32,000 nucleotides of DNA from Candidatus Saccharimonadota bacterium (lineage in GTDB: Bacteria; Patescibacteriota; Gracilibacteria; BD1-5; UBA2023), in assembly GCA_042852035.1 (NCBI GenBank), contig BAAFHK010000001.1, forward strand, positions 600,001-632,000, in the 5' to 3' direction. The number at the start of each line of letters is the position of its first letter. The first letter of the stretch is position 1. Below are positions 1,121-23,897 of this stretch, one piece after another. Below the pieces are notes generated by a model. It saw only the letters and a program-made list of their open reading frames with translations, was not told the DNA's origin and did no database searches. The position numbers and the translations under genes were made by a program.

Positions 1121-2764
1121 CTATCTTCGGATTACAAATTCGATATTATCCAGATTTGAGGAAACCCGTGTGAGCCAAAATGGAGAGAATTTAATTTCCA
1201 CCTCATGAACACGACCCTCTGCTATGAGTCGATTAATAGCCTCCTTTTTGGGAAGTCAAGCAATCATGACTTGCATACGACGAGTAAGTTCATTGCTCGA
1301 GTTTTCGAGATCATAAGTAATAGTCGTATTCATCTCCATTGTGGCCTTAATATTCATGTCATTTTCATCACGAGTTATTATATTAGTAAGACGAAGACTT
1401 TCTTCGTGAATAGCAAGCTCTTTATCGGTTCCAAGAAGAAGTTTTTCTCGAAAAATTCCTGCAAGATAGTTTATTACAGCTTTTCGATCATAGATAAGTG
1501 CGTAAGCATTGATTGATCCTTTCAGTTCTACCTCATCTGCAGGATCTCCAATCTTTTCTCATGACGCAATCACTATCGTTTCACCCGTGAGAACAAGGGC
1601 CTCTCACATCAGAAGAGCATAATCCTCACTATTATTCTCATTCTCATTTTTTAGCCACTCATCTAGATTTGTTCGAGCAGTCCGCTTAAGTTGTTCACGA
1701 AGTATTGCCTTTCATTTTTCAATCTCTGGCTTAGTAATAATTCTAACTGCTGAATCAGCCCCTCAGAGAAAATTTTCTTTTGTCTTTGCATAAACCTTCT
1801 CACGATTGAACTTGAGTCCCGGTATAGAAAGATATGTACCTGTAGGAATATTTCCACGTGATCCAACAATTCTTCAACCTTCATCAAGTTGCTCAGCCTT
1901 GACGTAAACTTCAACCGCACCAATCTCAGTCACTCCATTAACCTGACGAGCTGCAGGAACATTAATCCACTCATCTGTTTTAAATACAATGCCTTCTTCA
2001 GAGACGAATCTCGTATTTGGCTTCATTGCTTGAGGTATTGTAAGCTCATTATAAACGGTAATATGACCTCATGCAGAAGTTGCAGAGTTTTGATCAATAG
2101 TTTCAATTGCAAATCTCATAGAGTACTCTACCGGAATTGAGACTTTTTTAAGCCTTACTTCGTTTTTTTGTGACATAAGAGCTCCGCTCTGTCCTGGGGT
2201 TTGAGTAAATATAATATTCGCACTAATAGGTCTAACTGTTGTCTGTGGAACGACGTAAACATAGGTTTTTGAGACAGCGAAATGGAATATAAACATTAGC
2301 AATGAGAGTGACATGACAAGACCCGCAACAATAAGAAATGTATTCGGAGATCTCTTCTTTATGGTGTGTATTGGTGTTTTTGATCGCTTTCTCGTAAAAA
2401 GAAACTTTAGGTACTCCATTCCTCTTCGGAGTTCGTAAAGAAAATATTCCCACATTGATAGATTATGTGCAAGAATATTTTTTTTAGAGAATTCTCGATC
2501 AAATTCTGCCCTAACTCATGATTTTTCTGCCCCGATTCATAAAGAGTGAGCCATTTCCACTTCATAATCATAACTCAATAAGAGCGAAAATTGATCAACT
2601 CGAAACCTCTTCTTCATTACAAGCAAAACATCGCGCGTAAGAGGAAAGCTTACCTCACTCATATCCACGAGTACTGGAGTTTGGCTATTTTTTATTCGTT
2701 CATCGATGAGTCGGAGTGCCTGAATAAGGGAGAGCTCCTTTCGAAGAATGAGTTTATTATTCAT
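1121..2764 (-). CDS. Conserved hypothetical protein, 547 aa: N-terminal cytoplasmic domain, single TM, large extracytoplasmic domain
   Basis: ORF-track pieces 2537..2764 and 2069..2455 and the sequence down to TAG at 1121-1123 form one frame, interrupted only by TGA. The TM segment is FLIVAGLVMSLSLLMFIFHF. From memory the downstream part (...GSRGNIPTGTYLSIPGLKF...) resembles CPR proteins often annotated baseplate-J-like; this was not verified. Confidence 0.6.
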
Positions 2765-3965
2765 AGTGATAGAGAGTATATCGAAGAATTCGAATTATGG
2801 GATCTTTTTTTATGTGAAGAAGTTCCTGCCCAAGAAAAGAAAGTCAGTGCGTTATAATAAAGTCCTTAGGGATTACTTTCTCTCATACGAGCCCTGAAAG
2901 TTCTTGTATTTTTGTGTGAATTCATACAGATCATTCAATTTGGTTCAAAAAAAGCCTATTTATCCATTCAGAAGAAAATATTCATCACGATACATAAAGA
3001 ACCGTATCCTTAAGGCTATCTTTTTCTTTTTGTATAATACTCAGCAGTGCATCAATAACATACGAAAAGTATTCGGATGCACACTCTTTCCTTATCTCGT
3101 TATCAACCTCATTTGGCTTCATACGCATAAGAAGGCTCTCAATTTCAGTAAATGAATACTCTGGAAAGCTTGCCTGTAGAATATCAATAAGCATCTTTGC
3201 TCATGCAGAAAAAGTTTCAAAGTACGATATTTCTCCATCTATCATTGATACAACGGTCATATGTGTGTATCAGATATCAATAAATAGAGCCTTACGATTC
3301 TCATGCGCACTTTTTTCAACAATCTTCGGAAGTATAACTGGCGTTGGAACTATAGAAATAACATTTTTTCAGAGACTTGAAATAATAGAACGTAGTATAT
3401 TATATTCACTTGCAAGAGTATAGATGTTAAGAACTGAAATACGAACATGCTGTCCCGTCATTCATATAGGGTGAGTAACAGAATTTCCATCTATTGTTAT
3501 AGAGGTAATAGTGCTAGAAATGAGCCGAATATCATCTCGAATAATGGCAAATTCTGACTTTGCCCTATCTTTTACGCGCAGTAGTGAAGTTTTTTCAATT
3601 TTCTCTATCATCAGATCAAGCTCATCCATGCTGAGTGGCTCATCTGAATCATGCCGAATATATTGACTCGAGATACTATCTCCAATACATACCGCTGGAG
3701 AGAAGGCTATAATTATATCATTTGGTATGGATTCTATTCATTTGCATGATTCATGGATTGATTTTTCAATGGTTGCTGCTACTCATTGCATATCCATAAT
3801 TGCTCAATCTTGAAAGTTTCTTTTATTTTGCCTTACATTAGCACATCCATCTAATTTTAATATTCCATCACTCATTGAATATAAAGCGCTCCGAACCCTA
3901 TATGATCAGAGATCTATCGCAATAAAGCGATCATAGGCATGAATGTTCGAAATACGAAATCCCAT
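2757..3965 (-). CDS. FtsA/PilM-family actin-like ATPase (402 aa)
   Basis: Phosphate-1 motif: FIAIDL[TGA=G]SYRVRS. Phosphate-2 motif: ALFIDIGYTHMTVV. Adenosine motif: VLYVS[G][G]IFSS, with both Gly encoded by TGA. The TAA stop at 2757-2759 overlaps the downstream ATG (2762-2764) in ATGAATAA. Confidence 0.65.
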
Positions 3966-3976
3966 AAAGTGGCTCC

Positions 3977-4004
3977 AGTATAGGAATAATATACTTCTTT
4001 GCAA
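3977..4004 (-). promoter_or_regulatory. Sigma70-like promoter for the ftsA-like operon (TTGCAA-N16-TATACT)
   Basis: On the minus strand TTGCAA lies at 3999-4004 and TATACT at 3977-3982, with a 16-nt spacer. The -10 box ends about 12 nt upstream of the ATG at 3965. Confidence 0.45.
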
Positions 4005-4191
4005 GAAGAATTCCTGAAATATCTTGAGAAGAATTCCTTCATTTTTTGCATAGAAAGAAATAATAGTGTAGTATACTAAAAATAGGTTTATGCTCATAAA
4101 AACTCGACTTTCAAATCTTTGGTATCTCTTGTGGTGGTCCATATCACTTTCTTTTGTAGTTATATTTTATCATATAGTGCTATGATCGAAT

Positions 4192-4956
4192 ATGTTTTCT
4201 TTTAATCCAGAGATTCGAACCATTATTGATAATATTTATAAAACCGTCTTTTGACTCATTGTAACATCCATGGTTGCGTCAGTTACAAATATTGTTTTTA
4301 GAGAAATAAAATACTCATTTTGAGCTGATCATCTTATTATCAGGAAGTTCCTTCCAACTCTAAGATTTATTACACTCCTTCTTATATGGATTATTGGATG
4401 ATTTATTATCCTTGAAAGTCTTCATATAAATACTGATGGACTCATTGCATGAGCCGGAATATGAGGAGCAATCTTTGCGATTGCAAGTAGAGATATTATT
4501 GCAAATCTTCTCTGAAGTCTTTCTATCATACTCTCAAAGATGCTTGAGATAGGTGATACCATTCGTGTCAAATGACATGAATGAGTCGTGGAAGAAATCA
4601 CAATGAGTTACACAAAGATTATGAATATTGAAGGAAAAGTAGTCTACATACCAAATAAAATCCTCAGTACTGAATCACTTGAAAATCTTACCCGAAGAAG
4701 ATTTTATCTCTACATTTTTCGTGTTCCATTCAAAAAAACGATCTGACATCCAGATACCGTGAAAGATATGCTTATGCTTATTGAAGGAAAGATTGCTGAA
4801 TACGATCCAATCGATATATCTATTTCAAATGAGATCCCAAACGCTAATGACTTTGTATATGTTTTTGAAGTGCAAATGCCGGAAGAAAACAAAGACTTTG
4901 AAAAAGAAATTCGAGAATACCTTGTTCCATTTATTTTTCCAAAAGAAAATAAATAG
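4192..4956 (+). CDS. mscS: Small-conductance mechanosensitive channel, MscS family (254 aa)
   Basis: Translation with TGA=Gly gives ...DGLIA[G]AGI[G]GAIFAIASRDIIANLL[G]SLSIILSKMLEIGDTIRVK[G]HE[G]VVEEITMSYTKIMNIEGKVVYIPNKIL..., the classic MscS TM3 and beta-domain signature. It ends in TAG. Confidence 0.85.
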
Positions 4957-5044
4957 TACAAATTTTTGCAATAGATATTTTTTCCTTTCCTATAAAAGAA
5001 AATTAAGACAATCACAGTTCAACTCATTATGAACACTACTCGGG

Positions 5045-5072
5045 TTGCAAAAATAGAAAAGTCTCCTATACT
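5045..5072 (+). promoter_or_regulatory. Sigma70-like promoter upstream of mraY (TTGCAA-N16-TATACT)
   Basis: TTGCAA lies at 5045-5050 and TATACT at 5067-5072, with a 16-nt spacer, 16 nt before the mraY ATG. Confidence 0.45.
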
Positions 5073-5087
5073 CACGGGGAATTTTTT

Positions 5088-6131
5088 ATGACTCATCTTT
5101 CCACTCTTCTCTCATATTTACTGATTTGAACAGTAGCTACATTTATTTTTATTCCGCCTTATATCGAATTTCTCTATCGTTATAATCTTTGAAAAAAAAT
5201 TCGAGAGGAATGACTCATAGGGAAGGCAACTGAATTTGCAAAACTTCATGCTCAAAAGATTTGAACCCCAACAATGTGATGAGGGATAATTCTTTTTGTT
5301 ATTTTGATTTTAGTCTTGGGTTCAATTTTTATTCAAAAATTCTCTTCCGAACTTGGACTAACAATACGCTATTCTCTGTGGAATCGAAATGAAACATATC
5401 TCGCCCTATTTACGCTCTTTACTGTTTGAGGCATCTGAATGGTAGATGACTATCTCAATGTTCGCGAAATAGGACGAACCAAGGGTCTTTCTGCTAGAGT
5501 CAAGCTCACCTTATTGTTTCTTTTCGCAGGAATTGGAGCATGGTGGTTTTATGGCAAGCTCCAATTCGATAGTATTAGCTTACCATGGCTTGGTGAGATT
5601 TACCTCTGAATATTTTATATTCCACTTTTTATACTTATAGTAGCAACAACAGCGAATAGCGTGAATTTTACCGATGGCCTTGATGGCCTTGCTGGTGGCA
5701 TTCTCCTGATGAACTTCTGACTTTATGCCTTCATTTGTTACGATAAATGACTCACCATTCTTTCCGCTCTTTGTCTCATTATAGCATGATCTCTCATTTC
5801 TTTCTTGTGGTTTAATATAAAACCTGCATCCTTTTATATGTGAGATACCGGCTCCCTCTCTCTTTGAGCAACATTAGCAGTAATCGCCATGATGACCGAT
5901 ACTCTATCTGTTCTATTTGTAAGTTCTGCGATTTTCTGGCTTGAACTCCTCTCTGTTATCATACAGCTCCTATCAAAAAAACTCAGAAACTGAAAAAAGG
6001 TATTCCGCATTGCACCATTTCATCATCATCTTGAAGCCATTGGCTGGACTGAGGAAACAATTGTTATGAAATTTTGGCTTATAAGCATTGTTTTAGTGGC
6101 ACTTTGAGGGGTAATTAATCAGATAATATAG
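5088..6131 (+). CDS. mraY: Phospho-N-acetylmuramoyl-pentapeptide transferase MraY (347 aa)
   Basis: Motifs present: LYRYNL[G]KKIREE, KI[G]TPTM[G][G]GIIL (TGA TGA at 5277-5282), NSVNFTDGLDGLAGG, YM[G]DTGSLSL[G]A, APFHHHLEAIGWTEETIVMKFW. It ends in TAG at 6129-6131. Confidence 0.95.
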
Positions 6132-6263
6132 TATTATTAATTAAAATTAATTAAAGTAAATATAAATTTCAATTTGTTGGATTTTTACTTTAGAATAGAG
6201 GAAATTTTAGATGCTTCGGCGCTTTTTTCTCTTCAGAAATAGGGTTTCAGGTAATGAAAATGT

Positions 6264-7336: not shown

Positions 7337-8530
7337 TTATATTGCCCATTTTCCGTCACGAAAAACCTCAGTATCACCTATAATAACTGATTCAAGATCT
7401 ACAAAAACATCAATGTGAAATCTTTGAGTCTCAGATTTTGGAAGTTTCTTCCCATATATTCCATGCTTCTTTCACAAGGAAAGATGAACTCAAACTTTTC
7501 TTTCATAAAAGTTAATATCGGAAAGGGGATTTTCCTTATTCATTGCAGGATTGAGTCAATATCACAATTCGCGAACCATAACCTCTCACTCAAACTGAAC
7601 AACAAGATTATAAAGCTTCTGAAATGCCGGAGGAAAATCGGAGGAGGGAAGTACTCTTCACTTTTCGATAGTTAATTCAAATGGATCGCAAATATTAATC
7701 GAGAAATCTTCATTAGGGTAAGTATCAATAAGACACTTTCCATTAACCTCTTCGAGATGAATTGCTTCGGTAAAAGTTTCACCTATAGGAAATGTACCTC
7801 ATTTATTTTCAATTCCAGTATAGTCTCCTGTATTACCGCGAATATTCTCAAGAGCTCAAAAAGTAAGAATACTTCAATTACTCGATACTATTTTTGTTTG
7901 ATTGGCATTTTTCGAGAGTTTTGAAAATTCTTGTTCAAGCCGAATGTACTCATCGCTACGATATATGAGTGATTGAGCGAAAGTATGAATTTCAGATTCT
8001 TTTATGTAGGCAAGGTGATTATGTTCAATAACATGCACTCCTCTATGGAACAATTCAAGTCGAATTCGGAACGTTGAAAGACGGAAGTTTGTTGACTGAA
8101 CAAGGATTACAATACTATTTTTAGGCAGGGAAGTAAGTTCATTTTTTATAGCCTCTACCTGAGGATCCACTTCTACAACCGCTTCAGCCTTTACCTCAAT
8201 TGTCTTATGATGATCGAGTCATGTTGATATATTTTCAGTAATATTATGGGACGTGATAACCCGATTTTGCTCTTTAGAATGAGGATTTTCTGGATTTATA
8301 AGACCCCCCCGATACAGTGGTTGTGGAGGATTTTTAAATTGTCGGATATGGATTTTTGCATTCGTAAACTCCTTATTGACTCAGTTTAAAACATCAATAT
8401 ACGCCCCAGAAAGAAGCCTTGCAAGTGGGGAATCCTCATCATAGAGAAGATAAAGATTTTGATCGAGGCAAAACTTCATGTTCTGAAAAAGAATATCATG
8501 ACAAGATTGCGTAAGTGTATTTTCTTTCAT
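7337..8530 (-). CDS. M29-family (AmpS/PepS/aminopeptidase T-like) aminopeptidase (397 aa)
   Basis: A single frame runs from ATG at 8528-8530 to TAA at 7337-7339 with in-frame TGAs. Recalled family motifs: ...RGNTGDYTGIENK[G]GTFPIGETFTEA..., ...V[G]VHLSL[G]KKHGIYG..., ...RFHIDVFVD.... The family call is from memory. Confidence 0.5.
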
Positions 8531-8558
8531 TGGAGTATGTACGGTTAAAATATTTTGC

Positions 8559-10133
8559 CTATTCTATTGATTTCTTAAAAAACGGAAGTGGATTTTGAGA
8601 TTCAAATATTGCTCCAGCCACGAAGCAAATTCTACTAAATTGTTCTAATGTAATAGATGAGAAGATTTGCTGAACATAATACTCTCCAAGTCATTTTATT
8701 GCATGCATACTAAAAGAAAGGTAGACCTTAGTATCCTTAGTTGATACGAGAAATAATGAGCTCAGTTTCTCATAGGAATAAAATTTATTTATTATATGAT
8801 CTGGAAATGCTCCGGAATTTCTCATAGAAGCATGTATTTCTCAAATAATTGCTTGTATTACTTTTTCTTTCTTTTGTTCAAAGTCACTTAAATCAACCTG
8901 AATGGCTGCCAAAGAAAAAATATGGTCCTCATTTCTTACTGGATTTACCCCGAATTTCAAAGATTCTCATGAGACATACATCGTTCGTGGCTTACTTTTT
9001 ACGGACTCTTTTTTCTTAAGTTTTCCATCTCTCCATTCAAGTCAAAAAGTATGGAATACCGTTCCTACCGTAAGATGATTGCCCTGCTGATAATACTGCT
9101 CCCATGATGAAATATTACTCTCTGAGGGCGGACGAAGCACCGTCGGAACAGTATATCCATGGATTTCTGCGCGAGAAAGGTTTTGTTCATCCTTTTCTGT
9201 ATTCCAAAGCATACATACCTCACGAAATGCATCTCTCATGTTTTTCTTTCTAGCCATAACAGAAGGGAATCGTTGACGCAAAAAACGAGAAAATGGTCAT
9301 GAATGAAGCTGAGACACAGAAGCAAATGGAATGCCTCTATTCAACATTCTCATTCCAGATTTTCTTGGCTTATAATCTCTTTCATAAATTCCAAAAAGTC
9401 CAAGCTCAACGGCTTCTAAGAAGGTTCTAAGCTTTGCATCTGGTAACAAGAGAAATTCACACATGCTTCGATAGTCTTCAAAAAGCAGGACTCACTTATT
9501 TTTTGCATTCTTTTTATTCCATCTTATAGCAAAACGTTTCCAGTTTTGTGGAATAGATCTATTCTGAACTGCCATACATGAAAGTAGACCTTCTTTATCA
9601 GCCGCTAAATATTCGAGCAGCTTATCTTTACTCTCAATCATAGAGTACCTTCAAGAAACACCAGCTAAAGCATATGACTTTGGCTCTCGGATATCATATA
9701 CAGAATCCTCTGGAATAAGTCACATCTCTTCTAAATGAATTAAGAGGGAATGCACACTCGCACGAGATTTGAGGACTACATATCCCACAGCTTGACTGTA
9801 AATAGCATTATACACCTGAACTAGAACAGCAAGCGTCCTCAATCGAGCTTGATAAATAGGGAAGAGAAGTTTATAAAGATTTTCACCATGCTGGTTCCAA
9901 AATTCCCGTATCTTCCTCATTCTTTCTTCGTTATCTGGTGGCTGATTCTCAGATATTCTTGGAAAATCTCTTCTCACGACTTGTGTCACAGATGCCTGAA
10001 CCGATAAAACAAGCTGAGTAATTTCTTCATGAGAAAGATTGGGAATGCCAACTTTCTTTGCCTTATTATATTGAATAAGTATGTCTTGAGCGATTTTCTC
10101 AGGTGTTTGGCTTCGATTTTGATCTTTCAACAT
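8559..10133 (-). CDS. Hypothetical protein (524 aa), no family recognised
   Basis: ORF-track pieces 9720..10133 and 9042..9281 share one frame, which stays open from ATG 10131-10133 to TAG 8559-8561 when TGA=Gly. No TM segment or catalytic motif was recognised. Confidence 0.55.
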
Positions 10134-10869: not shown

Positions 10870-11646
10870 TTAACTCCATAATATACTCCGCATCGAAAGC
10901 GATCACATTGTGATTTCTTCGGTTGAAAAAATAGGAGCATCGTCTTCTCGAATCGCTCAAAGGAGAGGAAAAAGTGGTAAAAAATGATCTATCGTTGGAT
11001 GAGCAAGCAAAGAAGATTGTCCCCATTTTTTAAAATGGAGAATATCTTGGTGATCTCTTCCCTCAATAGCTGTCTTTACGCGCCTATCAAATTCTATTGC
11101 CCAATCATGCTGTTTTTGATTGGACCAATCAATTGCTCTTAAATTATGAACAATATTACCACTCCCAATTATTAGTATTCCCTGCTCTCGAAGGATTTGA
11201 AGCTTTTTTCAGAACTCATAATGCCATTCTGGTGATTGAGAGTAGTCAAGACTCATTTGAATCACTGGTATATTTGCATCAGGAAATACGTGTATGAGAG
11301 TAGACCAAGCTCCATGATCTAAACCATGTTCTTCATCTTTTACAAGAGAATACTCAGAAGAAATACTATCGACTATTTCATTTACAATCTCCTTTGATCC
11401 GGGACACTCATACTTTACCCTATAGAGCTCTGGCGGGAAACCATACATATCATATATCATTGCAGGATGATCTGCTGTATTAATGCGTGTTTCCCCTTCA
11501 GTAATCCAATGAGCCGAAAGCATAAGGATAGCCCTCGGAACTACCTTTACGCTATTCCCTATATCTCTCCATGAATCACTGTAGGAATTTTTTTCTATAG
11601 CATTCATAGGGTTTCCATGCCCAATAAAAATAAGTGGTTGTTTCAT
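10870..11646 (-). CDS. Class III extradiol ring-cleavage dioxygenase, 4,5-DOPA dioxygenase (YgiD) family (258 aa)
   Basis: MKQPLIFIGHGNPMNA...LSAHW...MIYDMYGFPPELY...HGLDHGAWS...[TGA=G]KKLQILREQGILIIGSGNIVHNL...AHPTIDHFLPLFPLL[G]A. It ends in TAA at 10870-10872, one nt from the convergent DUF360 stop. Confidence 0.8.
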
Positions 11647-11843: not shown

Positions 11844-13337
11844 ATGATAAATTTGGATACGATACGGCAATTGCGAAGTGATAAGATAGGATTTTTTCGT
11901 TTTAGGAGACTTGATAAAGATACCTATCTCATAACTAATGATGGTGGGCAGTATGCACTCCTTACGCTTGAAGAATTTCAATATTTTATAGGAGCTCATA
12001 TAAACTCATCACATCCAAGATATAAAGAACTCCTTACAAAAGGATTTATAAAAGATAGTGAATATAGCAATACTCTTTCCACTGCCATCCAAAAGCGTAA
12101 TCATTTTTTATCGTATGGTCCAGGCCTACATATTATTATTGTAACTCTTCGTTGTAACCACAAATGTCAGTATTGTCATGCGGCGGCGGCACCATCTTCT
12201 GCAAAACAGTTTGACATGACCGAAGATATTGCACGGTCAACTGTGGACACGCTATTTTATAGCCCATTAAATGATATTACTATTGAGTTTCAATGATGAG
12301 AACCACTACTAAATTGGAAAATCGTGCAATTCATTATTGAATATGCAATTACTAAAGCACAGAAGCTAAACAAGAAAGTTCGGTTCGCACTCGTATCGAA
12401 TATGAGCCTCATGGATGAAGAGAAGCTCAGCTATCTCATGAAATACAAGGTATGACTATCAACTTCACTTGATGGAACGGAAGAAATACATAATTATAAT
12501 CGCACCTTCCTTGAATGAAACAGCTTTGAAAGAGTAACTCACTGGATAAAAAGGATTAATGCCCTCTATAATGAGAAGCATCAAAGTGCGTGAATATGAG
12601 CGCTTTTGACGGTAACCAAAAAAACTCTTTCTCAATCAAGAGAAGTGATAGATACCTACCGATCTCTTTGACTTAATTCTATATTTCTTCGAGTCCTCAA
12701 TCCATATGGTTTTGCTGCTTGAGATCTTGAAAAGATAGGATATTCACATGATGAGTTTTTCGAATTTTTCAGAGAATCCCTCAATTACATTATCGAGCTT
12801 AATAAAGCCTGAATCCCCTTTCAGGAATCACATTCGAAAATCTATCTTTCAAAAATTCTTACACCATTTGACCCAAATTTTCTAGATACTAGAAGTCCTT
12901 GCGGAGCATGCATAGGTCAAGTAGCTTACAATTATAATGGAAAAATTTACTCTTGTGATGAATGAAGAATGCTTTCAAGAATGGGTGATGAAATTTTTTA
13001 TATGACTGAAGTTTCTTCTGATGCACGAGAAACTTTCACAAAAATGTGAGAATGTCCAACCACAAAAGCCATGGTACAAATGAGTACTCTCGATGGAATT
13101 CCAGGTTATAATGAAAGCGTATATAAGCCCTATTTATGAGTCTGCCCTATAAATTCTTATAAAACGACATGAAATTGTATTCCAACCTATTCCAAAGATA
13201 GTAAGAGAAAACTTGATGAAAAAATTCTCGATTTCCTCTTTGTTCTCCTCAAAGAAAAAGAAAATGAAAGAATATTTCAAAGTTGGCTAGAGTGAAGCCC
13301 AAAAATGGACGCCAGCTCACAATGTGAAGCATTTTAA
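11844..13337 (+). CDS. Radical SAM / SPASM-domain maturase, HxsB-like (497 aa)
   Basis: The N-terminal ~100 aa include GFFRFRRLDKDTYLITNDGGQY. The CX3CX2C motif reads LRCNHKCQYCH. TIEFQ[G][G]EPLLNW has both Gly encoded by TGA TGA at 12294-12299. Further matches: STSLDGTEEIHNYNR, IFLRVLNPYGFAA, SPASM cysteines SPCGACIGQVAYNYNGKIYSCDE[G]RML and L[G]VCPINSY. The HxsB assignment is from memory of TIGR03978-type sequences. Confidence 0.8.
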
Positions 13338-13346
13338 AATAAAAAT

Positions 13347-14243
13347 ATGAAACGAGTTGACCTAAAAGTAGGCTTTGCCTGCAATAATCATTGTAGCTTT
13401 TGCGTTCAGGGCGATAAAAGATTTCATTATAAACCGAGAAAAATTGAAGAATTAAAAAAAATCATCGATGATGAATATTGATGTGGAGCTCGAGCAATTG
13501 TATTTACTGGCTGAGAGCCAACTCTTCATCCAAATCTTCTAGAGGCAGTAAAATACGCAAAAGACCATTGATACGTTCAAATTCAAATTCAATCAAATGG
13601 AAGAAGCTTCAAAGATAAATCTTATGTATTAGCCCTTATAGAAGCTTGAGTTACAGAATTTGGTCCATCAATTCATGGGTTTCATAAAGAAACCCATGAC
13701 ACTCTCGTATGATCTCCTTGAGCATGGGAGGAGGTAATGCAGTGACTTCTTGTTCTTCAATCGCTCCATCAAATAATTATCATTAACTCTGTTATTACCC
13801 AGTCAAACTACAAAGAAATCCCCCTTCTTGCAAAATTACTTATTAAAATAGGAATTATTTATTTTCAATTTGCATACGTCCACATTCTCTGAAGTGCTGC
13901 AAAAAATAAAAATAGTGTTCCTCCTCGAAAATCAGAAATTATGCCCTATATTTACAAGGCACTTGATATAGCAAAAACATACAAAGCAAGAATGCTTACC
14001 GAAGCAATCCCCTATTGTTTCATGCAAGGATATGAATATGCTATTTCTGAGAATACAACACCGAATACTACTGTTGTAGATGCAGAAATACGAACCAATG
14101 ACTATGAGGAATATCGTATTAATGAAGGAAAGGCAAAGCATGAAAAATGCAAAAAATGCATACGAAACAATATCTGTGAATGACCTTGGCGCGAGTATCC
14201 AGAAATCTACTGATGGGATGAATTTATCCCTATCATTTCCTAA
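13347..14243 (+). CDS. Second radical SAM enzyme of the pair (298 aa), Cys-rich C-terminus
   Basis: The sequence contains KVGFACNNHCSFCVQG (CX3CX2C), IVFTG[G]EPTLHP, IQIQSNGR and PSIHGFHKETHD. The C-terminus reads HEKCKKCIRNNICE[G]PWREYPEIY[G]WDEFIPI. It starts 10 nt after the first enzyme's stop. Confidence 0.8.
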
Positions 14244-14335: not shown

Positions 14336-17300
14336 TTATCGTTTGATAGCTATCTGGATTACGTTATCTTCATCGATTGCCTCTTCCCTCATAGCATCAG
14401 GCAGATCAATCTGTGAGACCAATTTTGAAAGCGTTTCACTCTCGATGAGTGACCCGAAATTTTGAAGAATCGTTTCACTTTCTTCTCATATGATTGAAAG
14501 ACTTATGCGATCAGTAACATTATAATTTGCTTCCTTTCTCATATCTTGTATGAGTCGGATAATATCACGAGCATATCCTTCGATTTTGAGTGCTTCTGTA
14601 ATCTCAGTATTCATGGCAAGCACCATTCCGTATCCACCAATAACATCTCCGACTCACTCAAGAGGAAGATATTCAAGGACGTACTCCCCTACTTCGAGAA
14701 CAAAGTTTCCTACTTGAAGTCTGCCACCATCCAGTTCTTCGAATTCCCCATTCTTTGCTCTAACAATTATTGACTGAACATCTTTTCCATATTTCGGACC
14801 AATTTTCTTTGCATCAGGCTTTGCAATTTTCTTTGCAAGTTTCTCTGGATTTTCAAGTTTTATACTCTTAACATTTAACTCATCTCGAATTATAGATTGA
14901 TAATACTCACTTAATTCAGCCGTAATAGTAACAGATTCGAGTGGTTGGCGTACTCGGATATTTTTCGATGACCTAAGAGCAAGACCGAGGGAAACAATAT
15001 GTTCACATCTCTCCATATCCCGATTAAGCTCACTATCGATAAGGTGACGATTCGGAAAGGTGACATACTCGAGATGGACCGACTCACGATTTGTAAGGCC
15101 CTTATAAACACTTTCCGAGAGAAATGGCATATATGGTGCCATAAGTTTCGAGAGTTCAATGAGAACGGTATGTAACGTTGAATATGCTGACCCCTTATCG
15201 TCACTCATTCCAGATTCCCAAAAACGCCGGCGAGAAAGTCGTACATACCAATTCGTGAGGTGATCCATATAATCTACGATAGAACGACATGCCCGGGAAA
15301 CATCATATGAATCCATAGCATCATGTACTTGCCCGAGAAGCACTTGAAGCTTCGAGAGAATCCAGCGATCGAGTGGATTAACTAGCTTTGTCGTCATAAG
15401 CCTATACGGATCAGCATTTCCTATTATTGTACGAAAGTGAGCTTGCTCTTCTCATTGCCCAAAGTACTGGTTTAGTACTGGTCGCGATGTGCCAGCATGA
15501 GCAACGATAAGAACTCGTTTTCATTTATATTTCTCAAGAAGTTCCGTATATGCACCGATAATTCTCGATTCAAATTGCTCCACATTCTCAAGGGAATTAT
15601 TTTTATAAATTTTCCGAAGCTCAAAGTGACTTGAGTCAGGAGGGAGTCAGGCAAGCTCTAAGATTTCTTTATGAGTCTTTCCAGCGTACTCTCCTGCTTG
15701 GTGTTCGGCGAACTTATCGTCTTCAGAATATTCTCAATGAAATCAAATTTCATCACCAATAAGATGGGCCGTATCACGTGCACGAATCTTTGAAGTATGT
15801 ACAATTACGTCAAAGCTTTTTCCCATTTCTCTGAATTTTTGTCAGGCACTTCTTGCTTGTTCTTTACCTTTCTCAGTTAACTCAGGATCATCCGTTCCAT
15901 CACTCATACGACCAGCAGCATTTGAGGTACTCTCTCCGTGACGAGTAAACCAAACTTCGGTATCATCAGGGGTCCATCCATCGATATTCGCATAGGTCGT
16001 AAAAAAACTATACGTGTTCCAGAGTGGCAGCATTACTCCTTTCACGGTGTCGATTATCTGTTCCTCTTTAAAATCCATATCTCCACCTGAAAGCAGTGGA
16101 CTATTGAGCATATAGAATCGAATTGGATCTGCGCCATATTTTTCAATTGTCGCACGTGGATCAGGATAGTTTCCATAAGATTTCGACATTTTTCGACCAT
16201 CATTTCCATTAATCACCCCAGTAGTGATAACATTGGTAAATGATGGGGTAGGATTTGGCTCATTATTTGGGTTTACGAGCACCCCAAGAACATGCATCAC
16301 ATAGAACCATGCACGCACCTGCCCAACATATTCAGCGATGAAATCTGCTGGAAAACTTGCCTCCATATCCTTTTTATTCTCGAATGGATAGTGCATTTGT
16401 GCATATGGCATAGACCCAGAATCCATCCAAACATCAAGAACCTCAGGTATACGAGTAAGTGGCTCTCCATGAAGTATAAGTCACTCGATGAGCTTACTTT
16501 CATTGATGTTAAAATGTCCATATCCATTAACCTTTATCGCAAATCATCCAGTCGTTTCGATGAGATTTTTTGATGCCTCAACTCTACCCTCTTTATCATC
16601 GAGAGAATATAGAATAATTACCTCTTCAACATATTTCTTTAAAAAACTCATGTCCGCTTGGAGGTGTGAAAAAAATTCTTGTAATCGCTCATGCTTTCCT
16701 TCTGGTGGAGCAACTAAGACAAGCCTCTTTAAGGAAATTTTATTTTTAATGAGCATATCAATCGAGAACCTACAACCAAGTGAGTGAGCAAATAGAGTAT
16801 CAACTCAATCAATATTCTCAGTAAATACTTTTTCCCAGGTCTCATAATTTACATTTTCTCCCATCTCGAAAGTAGGACAAGAAATCTCGATTCATTGTTC
16901 CTGAAGATTCTTGAGTGTTTGATTAAAGAAATCCACTACACTCTCAGTTCTTCGGAATCAGTGTATGCCGAGTACTTTCTTTGGTTTTCTGGCATTTTTT
17001 GGTGCAAGAAGAATAGAATCAATATAGGGTTTATGAAGATTAAATTCTATTCCATCAAATTCTCCTCACTTAAAAAAGTATTTTTTATCTCCTTCTATTT
17101 CGCGTCTTTCAAGTTGTCCATAAGCCTCATTCAGCTCAAAAATTTGATCTCGTGAAGATACAACCACTCTCTCTGAGGCATCCTTATTTTGCCACACTGG
17201 CATCGGAGCCCCCCAGTATCTGGTACGAGAAATACACCAATCTGGCGCAGACTCGATTCATTTTGCAAATCTTCCGAACTTAAGATGCTCTGGGAACCAA

Positions 17301-18601
17301 TTAATCTGTTCATTTGCGTTAAGAAGCTTCTCTTTCTGTGATTGGATATCAATAAACCAAGATTTCTGTGCCTTCTGGACGAGTGGAGTTGCTGATCTCG
17401 GACAAAATGGAACACGGTGAGTAATTCCCTCATTTTTAAAGAGAGTTCCATTCTCCTTCATTCGTTCGATATTTACCCTATTGGCTTCTTGGTAGTGAAG
17501 TCCTTCATAGTCGAAAATCTGAGATGTGTACTTCCCTGCTTCATCCATCGCTTCGGAGATAAAAATCCCCTCCTTTTTCGCAAGCTGAAAGTCAACATCA
17601 CCGAATTCTGGTGCCTCATGTCAGATACCAGTACCATCCGTATCTGTGATAAAATCTGCATGATAGATCTTGTGGTTCTTCTCGCCATTTTTCTGATAAT
17701 AATACTCTGGAAATGGTGGGATATATCCGAGTCAAACGAGCTCACTCCCCTGAAATTCTCGCTCAACACTATATTCCCCTTTTCACTTGAATACACTTTC
17801 TGCTCGATTTTTCGCGACTATCATATACTCCCCATTGTATGTTATGAGGACATAATCAATATCATTTCTCACTGCAAGGGCCATATTCGCAGGTATAGTC
17901 CAGGGAGTTGTCGTCCAGGCAAGTGCCTTCGTTCCTTCTGGGAATCGATCATTTGGTTCGAGTTCGAATTTCACGGTAATCGCTGGATCATTGACCTCCT
18001 GATACGTATCATCCATCGCAACTTCAAAGTTCGAAATCGGTGTCCCGAGTTTCCAACTATAGAGTGATACTCGTTTTCCTTCATAAATAAGACCCTTATC
18101 CCAAAGTTGCTGAAATACCCACATTACCGATTCCATATATTCTTGGTCCATCGTACGATAGGCTCGGTCCATATCGACCCAACGTCCAATTTTATCAATA
18201 TACCAGTCCCACTCAGCTGAAGTTGATTGTGTGTATTCATAACATCCATCAATAAATTCTTTCACGCCACGCTCTTCGATTTCTTTATTTGATGCAAGTC
18301 AGAGTTTCTTCTGAACTTTCTCTTCGATCGGGAGACCATGACAATCCCATCCCCAAACACGATCAACACGCTTCCCACGCATTGTCCAATATCGTCCCAC
18401 TACATCTTTAACTATAGACGAGAGGAGTGAACCATAGTGTGGCGTCCCCGTAATAAATGGAGGACCATCATAGAATCGATATGGATTATCCTCAGGACGT
18501 GAATCAATAGATTTCTTAAAAGTATTATTTGCTTTCCAGTAAGCAAGAACTTCACTTTCAAGTGCTGGGAATGATTGTTTTGGAGAAATAGAAGGAAACA
18601 T
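14336..18601 (-). CDS. ileS: Isoleucine--tRNA ligase (type 2 / eukaryote-like) of 1421 aa carrying two inserted enzyme domains
   Basis: ORF-track pieces 18299..18601, 17783..18265, 17258..17548, 16544..16756, 15842..16426 and 14654..15397 are all in one frame and are joined only through TGA. IleS motifs present: FYDGPPFITGTPHYGS, WGWDCHGLPIE, WCISRTRYWGAPMPVW, NLHKPYID, DVWMDSGSMPYAQ, GRKMSKSYGN, PLWNTYSFF, NPLDRWILS, LTNWYVRLSRRRFW. The stop is TAA at 14336-14338. Confidence 0.9.
15398..15961 (-). other. In-frame insertion 2 inside IleS: complete histidine phosphatase (phosphoglycerate-mutase/CobC-like) domain, about 188 aa
   Basis: It lies between IleS ...FFTTYANIDGWTPDD and ...VNPLDRWILS. 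The sequence is EVWFTRHGESTSNAAGR (RHGES at 15929-15943)...LTEKGKEQARSA[G]...FDVIVHTSKIRARDTAHLI...AEHQAGEYAGKT...ESRII...RVLIVAHAGTSRPVL (second catalytic His at 15497-15499). Confidence 0.7.
16478..17005 (-). other. In-frame insertion 1 inside IleS: complete small alpha/beta serine hydrolase domain (YdeN/RBBP9-like), about 175 aa
   Basis: It lies between the IleS motifs HKPYIDSI and GEPLTRIPEVLDVWMDSG. The sequence is ...KKVLGIH[G]FRRTES...VDTLFAHSLGC (nucleophile elbow, 16772-16789)...LVLVAPP...VIILYSLDDKEGRV...VNGYGHF, i.e. a Ser/Asp/His triad in the canonical order. Confidence 0.7.
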
Positions 18602-23192: not shown

Positions 23193-23897
23193 TTAAGATG
23201 CAAGCTTGAGGATCTCTTCAAAAAGCTCTACAAAATGTGACTGACCGATAAAGTGCCCCCTATCATGAAATGTGTGTAGCACCGAACCAATTGTAGAAAT
23301 ATGATATCGCACTGAATGGTCATAAGGAACAATAGTATCATCTGTCGATCCCCATATGTGTATATGAGGTATTGCCTTGTGAAGATGTGGGAGTCCGGCA
23401 TGAGAGAAGGCAAAAGAGCCAACTGATTCACCATCATTAAGTCAATTATTATCGAGTACTGGAGCTATAAGATGAAGTGCGTCGACTCAACGTGGAAATC
23501 CACTTTCAGAGAGATATTTCATAAGAAAAATCGCACCAAGAGAATGCCCAACAAGAACAAGCTTCTTGAGATCTTTCTCATGTTCCTTCTTCTCAGCTAT
23601 TCTTTCCATCGTAGTCTTGGTTGAAGAAAGTTTTTCGATTCCCTGAATATGAGGAAAATATTTTTCGAACCAAACCTTCCATTCACCATATTTTGCATTC
23701 ATAGTATTTGGCATATCAACTCTGATAGTCTCAAAATTATCAGAGAGCCCTTCCGAAAGCCATTTTTTCCAACTTGGTTTTTTTTCTGTGACATCCCAGT
23801 TACAATCTATAAGCCATTTGAGTGCTTCAAGATCATTATTAAATGAATTCCCTCCATCGATTAAAATAATTTGATGTTTTTGAATGTTCGCTTGCAT
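23193..23897 (-). CDS. Free-standing alpha/beta-fold serine hydrolase (YdeN/RBBP9-like), 234 aa
   Basis: The sequence is QIILIDGGNSF...KKLVLVGHSLGAIFLMKYL...[TGA=G]VDALHLIAPV...IHIWGSTDDTIVPY...FHDRGHF, a Ser/Asp/His triad in canonical order. It ends in TAA at 23193-23195. Confidence 0.7.

Follow-up and report, generated by a model that had tools for sequence, protein, structure and literature searches.

The window analyzed here is a 32,000-nucleotide stretch from the genome of a bacterium deposited as Candidatus Saccharimonadota and placed by GTDB among the Gracilibacteria (GenBank assembly GCA_042852035.1, contig BAAFHK010000001.1, positions 600,001 to 632,000). Its minus strand carries ileS, the gene for isoleucyl-tRNA synthetase (IleRS), and the encoded protein of 1421 amino acids (aa) is interrupted in frame by two additional domains, a putative alpha/beta serine hydrolase (insert C) and a putative histidine phosphatase (insert E), the letters referring to the insertion sites defined below. 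The components of the gene are as follows:

14336..18601, minus strand: ileS, whole gene, 1421 aa and a TAA stop, with UGA read as Gly (table 25)
17012..18601, minus strand, aa 1-530: first half of the catalytic (Rossmann/HUP) domain, CP1 editing domain and CP2, up to HKPYIDSI
16466..17011, minus strand, aa 531-712: insert C, nested RBBP9/YdeN-type alpha/beta serine hydrolase domain; predicted oxyanion residues H547-G548, nucleophile S607 (16781-16783), D669 (16595-16597) and H696 (16514-16516)
15971..16465, minus strand, aa 713-877: second half of the catalytic domain (EVLDVWMDSGS; KMSKS at 804-808) and the start of ARD1 (N862, F866)
15386..15970, minus strand, aa 878-1072: insert E, nested PhoE-like histidine phosphatase domain (His_Phos_1); key residues R887, H888 (15938-15940), N894, R940, E966 and H1035
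14339..15385, minus strand, aa 1073-1421: rest of the anticodon-binding domain (NPLDRWILS, T1116, R1124) and the type-2 C-terminal domains (DUF5915)

The ileS gene and its two inserts

On the minus strand, the interval 14336-18601 forms a single frame that opens with ATG, runs through 1421 sense codons and closes with TAA; it contains 19 internal TGA codons and no internal TAA or TAG. A plus-strand reading of this interval was rejected because it holds no open reading frame (ORF). When TGA is read as sense, ORFs of at least 200 aa cover 114% of the window, compared with 6.5% otherwise. Most of the 19 TGA positions are occupied by G in homologues, or by W where the annotation pipeline used table 4 (many of the database homologues carry W at TGA); thus, G is present at TGA position 290 in 90 of 118 homologues and at position 548 in 21 of 24. 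Because the homologues have glycine at these positions, UGA is assigned to glycine (code 25) and the frame is read as one protein.

The alternative to a single polypeptide is that the frame is an artefact, either a misassembly or a run of several genes separated by functional UGA stops. Under table 11 the frame is indeed interrupted 19 times, and the databases contain table-11-style fragments of such genes. However, TGA codons are spread over the entire gene and the entire window, at glycine positions of homologues; the host motifs run on in frame at both sides of each insert; and identical insert junctions recur across many independent NCBI, ENA, JGI and Logan assemblies. On the strength of the TGA distribution and the recurring junctions, separate genes and misassembly are rejected at the sequence level, and we consider an artefact hardly credible. 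The initial annotation had proposed one in-frame IleRS of 1421 aa with UGA as Gly, which the frame, the spread of TGA and the glycine positions of homologues bear out; its concern about misassembly is answered by the recurrence of the architecture with both inserts in independent assemblies (P0001, P0007, P0010 and P0012). The ileS gene of this UGA=Gly Gracilibacteria bacterium thus encodes a single-chain type-2 IleRS with two nested domains.

The host part of the protein is readily recognized. In Pfam searches, tRNA-synt_1 matches with E=6e-117, split in two stretches of which the first covers aa 18-489, followed by Anticodon_1 (aa 1078-1223) and DUF5915 (aa 1236-1419). The NCBIfam ileS equivalog model TIGR00392 scores 798.2 bits against a cut-off of 621.4, its match being broken into three stretches by the inserts. 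The closest solved structure, IleRS2 of Priestia megaterium (PmIleRS2; 8C8V), aligns with 667 bits in three blocks that span the whole host part (query 6-483 to 5-470, 713-881 to 506-666, and 1076-1391 to 673-1001 of 8C8V). Among homologues, the KMSKS motif (aa 804-808) and LWNTYSFF are conserved, as are the CP1 editing motifs WTTTPWTIPA and DGTGIGHEAP; aa 1-530 contain, besides TTTPWT and GTGIGHEAP, the sequence HYGS at the position of the HIGH motif (aa 55-58; 18428-18439, minus strand), with the fourth residue changed from His to Ser. In the 8C8V alignment, N862, F866 and R1124 correspond to N647, F651 and R721 of PmIleRS2, and T1116 lies at the position of S713; these four PmIleRS2 residues have been reported to read the anticodon bases A35 and U36 (bioRxiv 10.64898/2026.02.03.703510). 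The host core is 83-95% identical to those of close relatives. No metagenome-assembled genome is represented twice among 19 related loci, a weak pointer to ileS being the sole copy. The core would be expected to charge and proofread tRNA-Ile in the usual manner. As a separate observation, HYGS is common to most IleRS of Gracilibacteria, with or without inserts, and HYGH occurs in a minority.

Boundaries of the inserts were set against relatives that do not have one or the other of them (L015, L011 and P0004). The four host/insert junction peptides are HKPYIDSILLAPK, ILHGEPLTR, YANIDGWTPDDTEVWFTR and LMTTKLVNPLDR, and the junctions read ...YIDSI|LLAPK... and ...ILHG|EPLTR....

Insert C follows CP2 and precedes the second half of the catalytic fold. 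It stands in for about 7 host residues after HKPYIDSI and ends before EPLTRIPEVLDVW, for a net gain of about 175 aa. It matches the Pfam family Ser_hydrolase (PF06821; aa 602-701) with 31.7 bits, or 35.5 bits when the insert is searched alone, against a cut-off of 22. It contains the motifs GIHGF (545-549), AHSLGC (605-610), SLDD (666-669) and GYGHF (693-697). Across 24 site C inserts of IleRS and one free-standing paralogue (orf19, see below), overall identity ranges from 22 to 79%, and Y586, W589, S607, D669 and H696 are invariant; the HG oxyanion motif, including H547, is nearly invariant in the site C alignment. For both inserts, the structure models are proxies built from close homologues as isolated domains. 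The AlphaFold (AF2) model of a homologue segment 79% identical to insert C is an alpha/beta fold with pLDDT 89.6 and pTM 0.88, in which the host residues on either side come together in a short beta ribbon, and its best PDB neighbors in a Foldseek search are human RBBP9 and Bacillus subtilis YdeN (TM scores 0.67-0.75). A sequence search of the PDB with insert C gave no match, so that the fold search alone succeeded here. When the isolated inserts were used in word-indexed homologue searches, most of the matches were table-11 fragments of IleRS, and the nearest free-standing relative of insert C that was found, P0144, is 31% identical. Judging from motifs, profile match and model, insert C is a complete RBBP9/YdeN-type serine hydrolase domain with a predicted intact catalytic triad.

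Insert E lies inside ARD1, between N862/F866 and T1116/R1124 (8C8V alignment), and stands in for about 10 residues between YANIDGWT and LVNPLDRW, with a net gain of about 188 aa. The match to His_Phos_1 (PF00300) covers aa 883-1064 with E=8.5e-32 and 110.8 bits against a cut-off of 21.7, and includes the motifs RHGES (887-891) and VAHAGT (1033-1038). Among 32-59 site E inserts, R887, H888, N894, R940, E966 and H1035 show no variation or are conserved to at least 95%. The best PDB sequence match is PhoE (1EBB/1H2E, E=1.5e-12). The AF2 model of a homologue segment 56% identical to insert E (pLDDT 95.3) retrieves phosphoglycerate-mutase-like folds with Foldseek, the best mutual coverage being with PhoE 1H2E (TM scores 0.79/0.77). 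Cofactor-dependent phosphoglycerate mutases (dPGM) carry the motif E-R-H-Y-G; insert E reads AEHQAG at this position. It also falls below every NCBIfam equivalog cut-off, all mutase models included (the best dPGM model, dPGM_arch, gives 79 bits against a required 225, and GpmA-type models are far below), and a glycolytic role as a dPGM was rejected on this basis. By these profile scores and the proxy model, insert E is classified as a phosphatase-type member of branch 1 of the histidine phosphatase superfamily, not as a mutase.

These results agree with what the initial annotation had read from the letters of the sequence: a hydrolase module of about 175 aa after HKPYID and a phosphatase module of about 188 aa after YANIDG have the sizes, quoted motifs and Pfam matches that it gave, and the predicted succession of PF06821 and PF00300 flanked by tRNA-synt_1 and Anticodon_1 was found. 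That both modules keep intact catalytic residues is upheld by their conservation in the 24 site C and the 32-59 site E inserts, and the expectation that they form independent domains by the confident proxy models with RBBP9/YdeN and PhoE/phosphoglycerate-mutase folds.

The conservation of these residues also bears on the idea that the inserts are non-catalytic structural or regulatory pieces, for instance an extra tRNA-binding surface or ligand sensors that tune charging. Insert E sits in ARD1 between the anticodon-reading residues, as judged by the PmIleRS2 positions, and could touch the tRNA, and IleRS2 already has an optional tRNA-binding insertion, INS (bioRxiv 10.64898/2026.02.03.703510). 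Against this, the catalytic residues of both folds are invariant or nearly so over dozens of sequences that are otherwise 25-60% identical, and a purely non-catalytic role appears very improbable.

Insertion slots and evolution of the inserts

One point to be added to the initial annotation is that the gene is not unique; it belongs to a family found throughout the Gracilibacteria, with members of 1027 to 2143 aa. Most genome-collection relatives bear the name Candidatus Gracilibacteria, and the human oral GN02-873 is one of the relatives found there. Insertion sites were mapped by aligning 120 homologues to an insert-free member; 116 of them cover all five sites, which are:

Site A, just before the TTTPWT editing motif: NUDIX
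Site B, before LHKP: histidine phosphatase
Site C, after HKPYID: serine hydrolase
Site D, after MHYPF: GNAT acetyltransferase, in one case a Y1 transposase-like domain
Site E, after YANIDG: histidine phosphatase

Among the 116 IleRS, 73 are decorated, in 16 combinations, and 43 are plain. A histidine phosphatase is present at site B or E in 68 of the 73 decorated proteins. The combination varies even between close relatives: proteins with cores 83-91% identical to that of the query carry inserts at C and E, at B and E, at A and E, or at E only.

Several members of the family show unusual arrangements. P0080 (1677 aa, encoded on a 1.49 Mb contig) has an in-frame Y1 (IS200-like) transposase domain at site D (PF01797, E=1.9e-8). 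P0020 (2143 aa) contains two tandem histidine phosphatases, with the host junction NLHKPYID..LLAPKK duplicated between them, together with inserts at C, D (GNAT) and E; from its sequence, the tandem arrangement looks like the product of unequal recombination between alleles. The ORFs of L014 (about 2165 aa) and L004 (about 1971 aa) belong to more heavily decorated relatives; the former has, near reference position 584, an additional insert of about 200 aa, and its site C inserts are of double length. Small inserts occur near position 779 in L014 and L012 and near position 907 in L014.

In a neighbor-joining tree without support values, every phosphatase of site E falls in one clade and every phosphatase of site B in another. 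Because the contents of each slot form a single clade, the B and E slots were each probably filled once. The subsequent history of the inserts appears to be more complex than that of the backbone. On backbones that share 85-95% identity, the site E domains are only 33-42% identical (in P0016 and P0086, the backbones are 95% identical and the site E domains 37%), whereas backbones 58% identical carry site C domains 70-73% identical, and the identity of insert C follows that of the core poorly (Spearman 0.27). Since insert identity is out of step with backbone identity, simple vertical descent with loss only was rejected, and loss combined with allelic exchange by recombination across the highly conserved flanks appears to be the simplest reading of these sequences.

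The closest relative of the query in the GTDB genome collection, L006, is 90-94% identical to it in the catalytic core, 85% in the C-terminal part and 61% in insert E. The ratio of nonsynonymous to synonymous substitution rates (dN/dS) in four pairs of related loci is 0.07-0.17 for insert E against 0.10-0.12 for the rest of the gene, values that are qualitative because dS is saturated (above 1). By these comparisons, insert E evolves faster than the core and yet is apparently under purifying selection.

The share of TGA among glycine codons is 36% for insert C and 33% for insert E, and the other window genes likewise have 36%. Because the inserts use TGA for glycine as other genes of the window do, they are considered native to the recoded genome, not recent imports. 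This usage, together with the age of the B and E phosphatases as old single clades, does not sit with a recent foreign origin of the modules, which the initial annotation had called foreign. In the IleRS core, TGA makes up 11% of the glycine codons and is thus depleted relative to the inserts and the other window genes.

The inserts were also considered as inteins or as a mobile cassette with target-site duplication, and this option was rejected. No Hint or homing endonuclease domain was detected with Pfam at E-values up to 0.1, there are no splice-junction residues, and no direct repeats flank the insert junctions; the repeats in 15300-17100 are short, at chance level and away from the junctions.

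Histidine phosphatases are nested in valyl-tRNA synthetases (ValRS) as well. In an exhaustive profile search with the site E domain, 18 long proteins (over 600 aa) among the best 150 matches were scanned; a further Pfam domain is present in 16 of these, and each of the 16 is a class Ia synthetase. P0221, for example, is a genuine ValRS (973 bits against a cut-off of 704); because its contig uses the standard code and has 47% GC, it does not come from Gracilibacteria. The inserts of ValRS occupy two sites in the CP region, one of them within a CxxC...CxxC knuckle, with up to four tandem copies. In a joint neighbor-joining tree, the ValRS domains are separate from the B and E clades of IleRS and divide into two groups that include free-standing relatives. 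This separation of IleRS B, IleRS E and the two ValRS groups suggests at least four independent captures of histidine phosphatases by IleRS and ValRS. The ValRS with nested domains and the free-standing genes of the site E type are:

P0221, P0215, P0244, P0148 and P0280, and L020 at 3001-6204: ValRS with nested histidine phosphatases
L022 at 454-1059 and L023 at 146-748: free-standing site E-type phosphatase genes of about 200 aa, on UGA-recoded contigs with 20-30% GC

The free-standing genes of L022 and L023 have a TAA or TAG stop on either side, and in the joint tree they fall within the IleRS site E clade. A different small gene was noted at two insert-free loci, L024 (11092-11691) and L025 (11111-11716), where a conserved gene of about 200 aa follows ileS at a distance of 3-8 bp. 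Its product has a CDLDDTLF motif resembling the DxDxT-like motif I of HAD proteins; it has no Pfam or PDB sequence match, is confined to one clade, and is absent from the window and from L001-L019. The gene may encode a phosphatase partner for insert-free ileS, or its position may be no more than clade-specific synteny.

The window itself is an ordinary chromosomal stretch that encodes DnaG, an MraY-like transferase, radical SAM proteins, a LigB-type dioxygenase, DHFR, riboflavin genes and an RND pump, and no mobile element adjoins ileS within it. The neighboring features are:

23193..23897, minus strand: orf19, free-standing PF06821 (RBBP9/YdeN-type) hydrolase, Pfam E=1.2e-9
11844-13337 and 13347-14243, plus strand: adjacent pair of radical SAM genes just downstream of ileS
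10870-11646, minus strand: LigB-type extradiol dioxygenase, downstream of ileS and syntenic with it in seven related loci
1121-2764, minus strand: ORF of 547 aa with a weak similarity to Baseplate_J that stays under the cut-off (E=4.7e-4, 20.0 bits against 21.1)

The ORFs at 7337-10133 have no Pfam match. The gene orf19 lies about 4.6 kb upstream of ileS, and its product shares 22% identity and the catalytic triad with insert C; it is a paralogue of the insert and not part of ileS. Homologues of orf19 (56-62% identical) are located upstream of ileS also in L004, L006 and L009, with or without insert C.

Possible roles of the nested enzymes

Each insert leaves and re-enters the host chain at one point. 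Both can be envisaged as putative active hydrolases tethered to IleRS and acting on something that the synthetase binds or makes. The most likely substrate of the phosphatase would be a phosphate ester carried by tRNA, by a nucleotide product or analogue, or by the enzyme itself, and that of the serine hydrolase an aminoacyl or acyl ester. The roles suggested in the initial annotation were offered there as speculation and keep that status. RBBP9, the only characterized member of PF06821, removes an alpha-aminoacyl group and requires a free alpha-amine (PMC8866121), which makes an aminoacyl-ester substrate chemically plausible for insert C. The add-ons would then be built-in modules for clean-up, repair or detoxification. 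We consider it somewhat probable, on the comparative evidence, that the nested hydrolases are functionally coupled to the synthetase that carries them. This coupling is favored because class Ia synthetases appear to have captured the phosphatase repeatedly and independently, and because nearly every decorated IleRS (68 of 73) keeps a phosphatase at site B or E. Furthermore, because the genome has the free-standing orf19, insert C is not simply the sole copy of its family.

Several observations weigh on the other side. Free-standing phosphatases of the site E type exist in UGA-recoded genomes, nested in the E clade, and therefore the phosphatase needs no IleRS context. Given the 43 plain proteins among 116 and the differences in inserts between close relatives, no insert is essential for the function of IleRS. 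The transposase-like domain in slot D of one relative suggests that the slot loops simply tolerate whatever lands in them. In addition, the dN/dS values of insert E are rough owing to the saturation of dS, and the trees were built by neighbor joining without support values.

Some of these observations fit the main rival explanation, under which the inserts are safe-harbor passengers, that is, ordinary housekeeping enzymes that are unrelated to IleRS and reside in insertion-tolerant loops. They would be kept there because an essential, always-expressed gene guarantees their expression and because only a precise deletion removes an insert. Apart from the free-standing versions of the site E phosphatase, the gain and loss of inserts between close relatives and the many plain IleRS, this explanation can draw on the free-standing PF06821 paralogue about 4.6 kb away, on the five loops that accept four unrelated folds (with a transposase-like domain in one), and on the tandem copies in P0020 and P0148; conserved catalytic residues are expected under it as well. 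However, the 16 long hosts with another Pfam domain among the best 150 site E matches are all class Ia synthetases, with no other essential protein among them; IleRS and ValRS together seem to account for at least four separate captures of the histidine phosphatase; one or more phosphatases are retained in 68 of the 73 decorated IleRS; and the presence of a free-standing PF06821 gene implies that insert C is not a sole copy parked in ileS. With these points in view, we regard passengers as possible but rather unlikely.

Functional coupling could take the more specific form of a counter-measure to attack on IleRS or its tRNA, the modules reversing covalent damage or destroying inhibitors. Elsewhere, folds of the hydrolase, phosphatase, NUDIX and GNAT types serve to inactivate aminoacyl-nucleotide antibiotics or to undo modifications made by toxins (MccE/MccF, small alarmone hydrolases, Pth). 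Possible targets would include a mupirocin-type ester inhibitor, aminoacyl-nucleotide antibiotics, kinase or pyrophosphokinase toxins that modify the enzyme or the tRNA 3' end, and N-acetyl-aminoacyl-tRNA produced by acetyltransferase toxins. The patchy distribution of the inserts, the 33-42% identity of insert E between backbones 85-95% identical, the weak correlation between the identities of insert C and the core (Spearman 0.27), and the combination of fixed catalytic residues with varying copy number form a pattern typical of conflict-driven modules. Yet inserts C and E have no PADLOC match at E-values up to 0.01, no toxin or antibiotic gene was seen in the window, the dN/dS values indicate purifying and not diversifying selection, and type-2 IleRS is already naturally tolerant of mupirocin (bioRxiv 10.64898/2026.02.03.703510). 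A counter-measure of this kind is therefore judged improbable. Membership of inserts C and E in known anti-phage defence systems was rejected, there being no PADLOC match; the NUDIX insert of a relative alone matches a candidate model, PDC-S07.

A broader and more speculative extension of functional coupling, which we hold to be fairly unlikely, would make class Ia synthetases scaffolds for active modules (histidine phosphatase, NUDIX, RBBP9-like hydrolase and GNAT) that are shuffled by recombination and act in cis on the bound tRNA or the synthetase as a built-in repair or anti-toxin system. Such modules would strip phosphate or pyrophosphate from tRNA ends or from the enzyme, remove blocked or wrong aminoacyl esters, and destroy aminoacyl-nucleotide inhibitors. 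If this proposal is true, the modules would represent a new layer of translation quality control or of counter-defence.

Novelty and comparison with known systems

The statement in the initial annotation that no described aminoacyl-tRNA synthetase carries hydrolase and phosphatase modules at these positions stands so far as the literature goes: full-text searches found nothing on enzyme inserts in IleRS or ValRS, nor on the synthetases of Gracilibacteria. To our knowledge, the accessory domains described in synthetases are tRNA-binding, editing or signaling pieces. Fusions of the kind reported here have been noted only by automated annotation, for example under the JGI name 'isoleucyl-tRNA synthetase/broad specificity phosphatase PhoE'. 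A 2026 survey of 96,219 IleRS lists the canonical domains and the INS subdomain only and makes no mention of such enzyme inserts (bioRxiv 10.64898/2026.02.03.703510).

In the Gracilibacteria, the human oral GN02 included, an essential synthetase hosts complete general-purpose enzymes that are, by their conserved residues, catalytically intact, with up to five of them combined in one protein. The apparently independent captures of phosphatases by IleRS and ValRS point to an unrecognized link between the phosphatase and class Ia aminoacylation. The five slots are natural sites at which IleRS tolerates a folded domain of about 200 residues and might be useful for synthetase engineering. The family also poses an annotation trap: gene calls under table 11 or table 4 break or mistranslate such genes, and size or domain filters in IleRS surveys can miss them.

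The host part of the query resembles characterized type-2 IleRS (8C8U/8C8V; the MupA/MupB group) in core architecture, domain order, KMSKS, editing motifs and anticodon-reading residues. The differences are concentrated at the inserts: aa 484-712 of the query (229 residues) correspond to a stretch of about 35 residues in PmIleRS2, and aa 882-1075 (194 residues) to one of 6. In addition, the HIGH motif of the query is HYGS, unlike that of PmIleRS2, and the query scores below the NCBIfam cut-offs for MupA and MupB.

Among free-standing enzymes, RBBP9 and YdeN (PF06821; 2QS9, 7OEX and 1UXO) share with insert C the same minimal alpha/beta hydrolase fold and Ser-Asp-His triad, but at 15-21% identity, and insert C is embedded in IleRS. 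Similarly, the broad-specificity phosphatase PhoE (YhfR) of Geobacillus stearothermophilus (1EBB/1H2E) and the short branch 1 phosphatases PspA and CobC have the catalytic set of RHG, Arg, Glu and His seen in insert E, which is about 20-30% identical to PhoE-type phosphatases and differs in being embedded in another protein.

A curated precedent of an IleRS that carries an unrelated enzyme domain is the NCBIfam family NF040702 (IleRS with an N-acetyltransferase domain). The cut-off of this model is 1999; the query, which has no GNAT domain, scores 249 bits, and the GNAT-bearing IleRS of Gracilibacteria, P0085, scores 248 bits. Because both are far below the cut-off, NF040702 is considered to represent a different lineage and architecture.

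Inteins resemble the IleRS inserts in occupying fixed points in a conserved essential gene, in their patchy presence among close relatives and in the signs of recombinational exchange; the IleRS inserts differ in being, by all appearances, enzymes under purifying selection in the mature protein. Within synthetases, the CP1 editing domain and the INS of ARD2 are likewise domains inserted in loops, and INS has been gained and lost among prokaryotes (bioRxiv 10.64898/2026.02.03.703510). These domains are, however, specific to synthetases and act on tRNA, whereas the inserts at C and E are complete members of general enzyme superfamilies with free-standing relatives. Nested domains of synthetases are thus already known; what is new is the combinatorial insertion of complete general-purpose enzymes into the catalytic and anticodon-binding domains.

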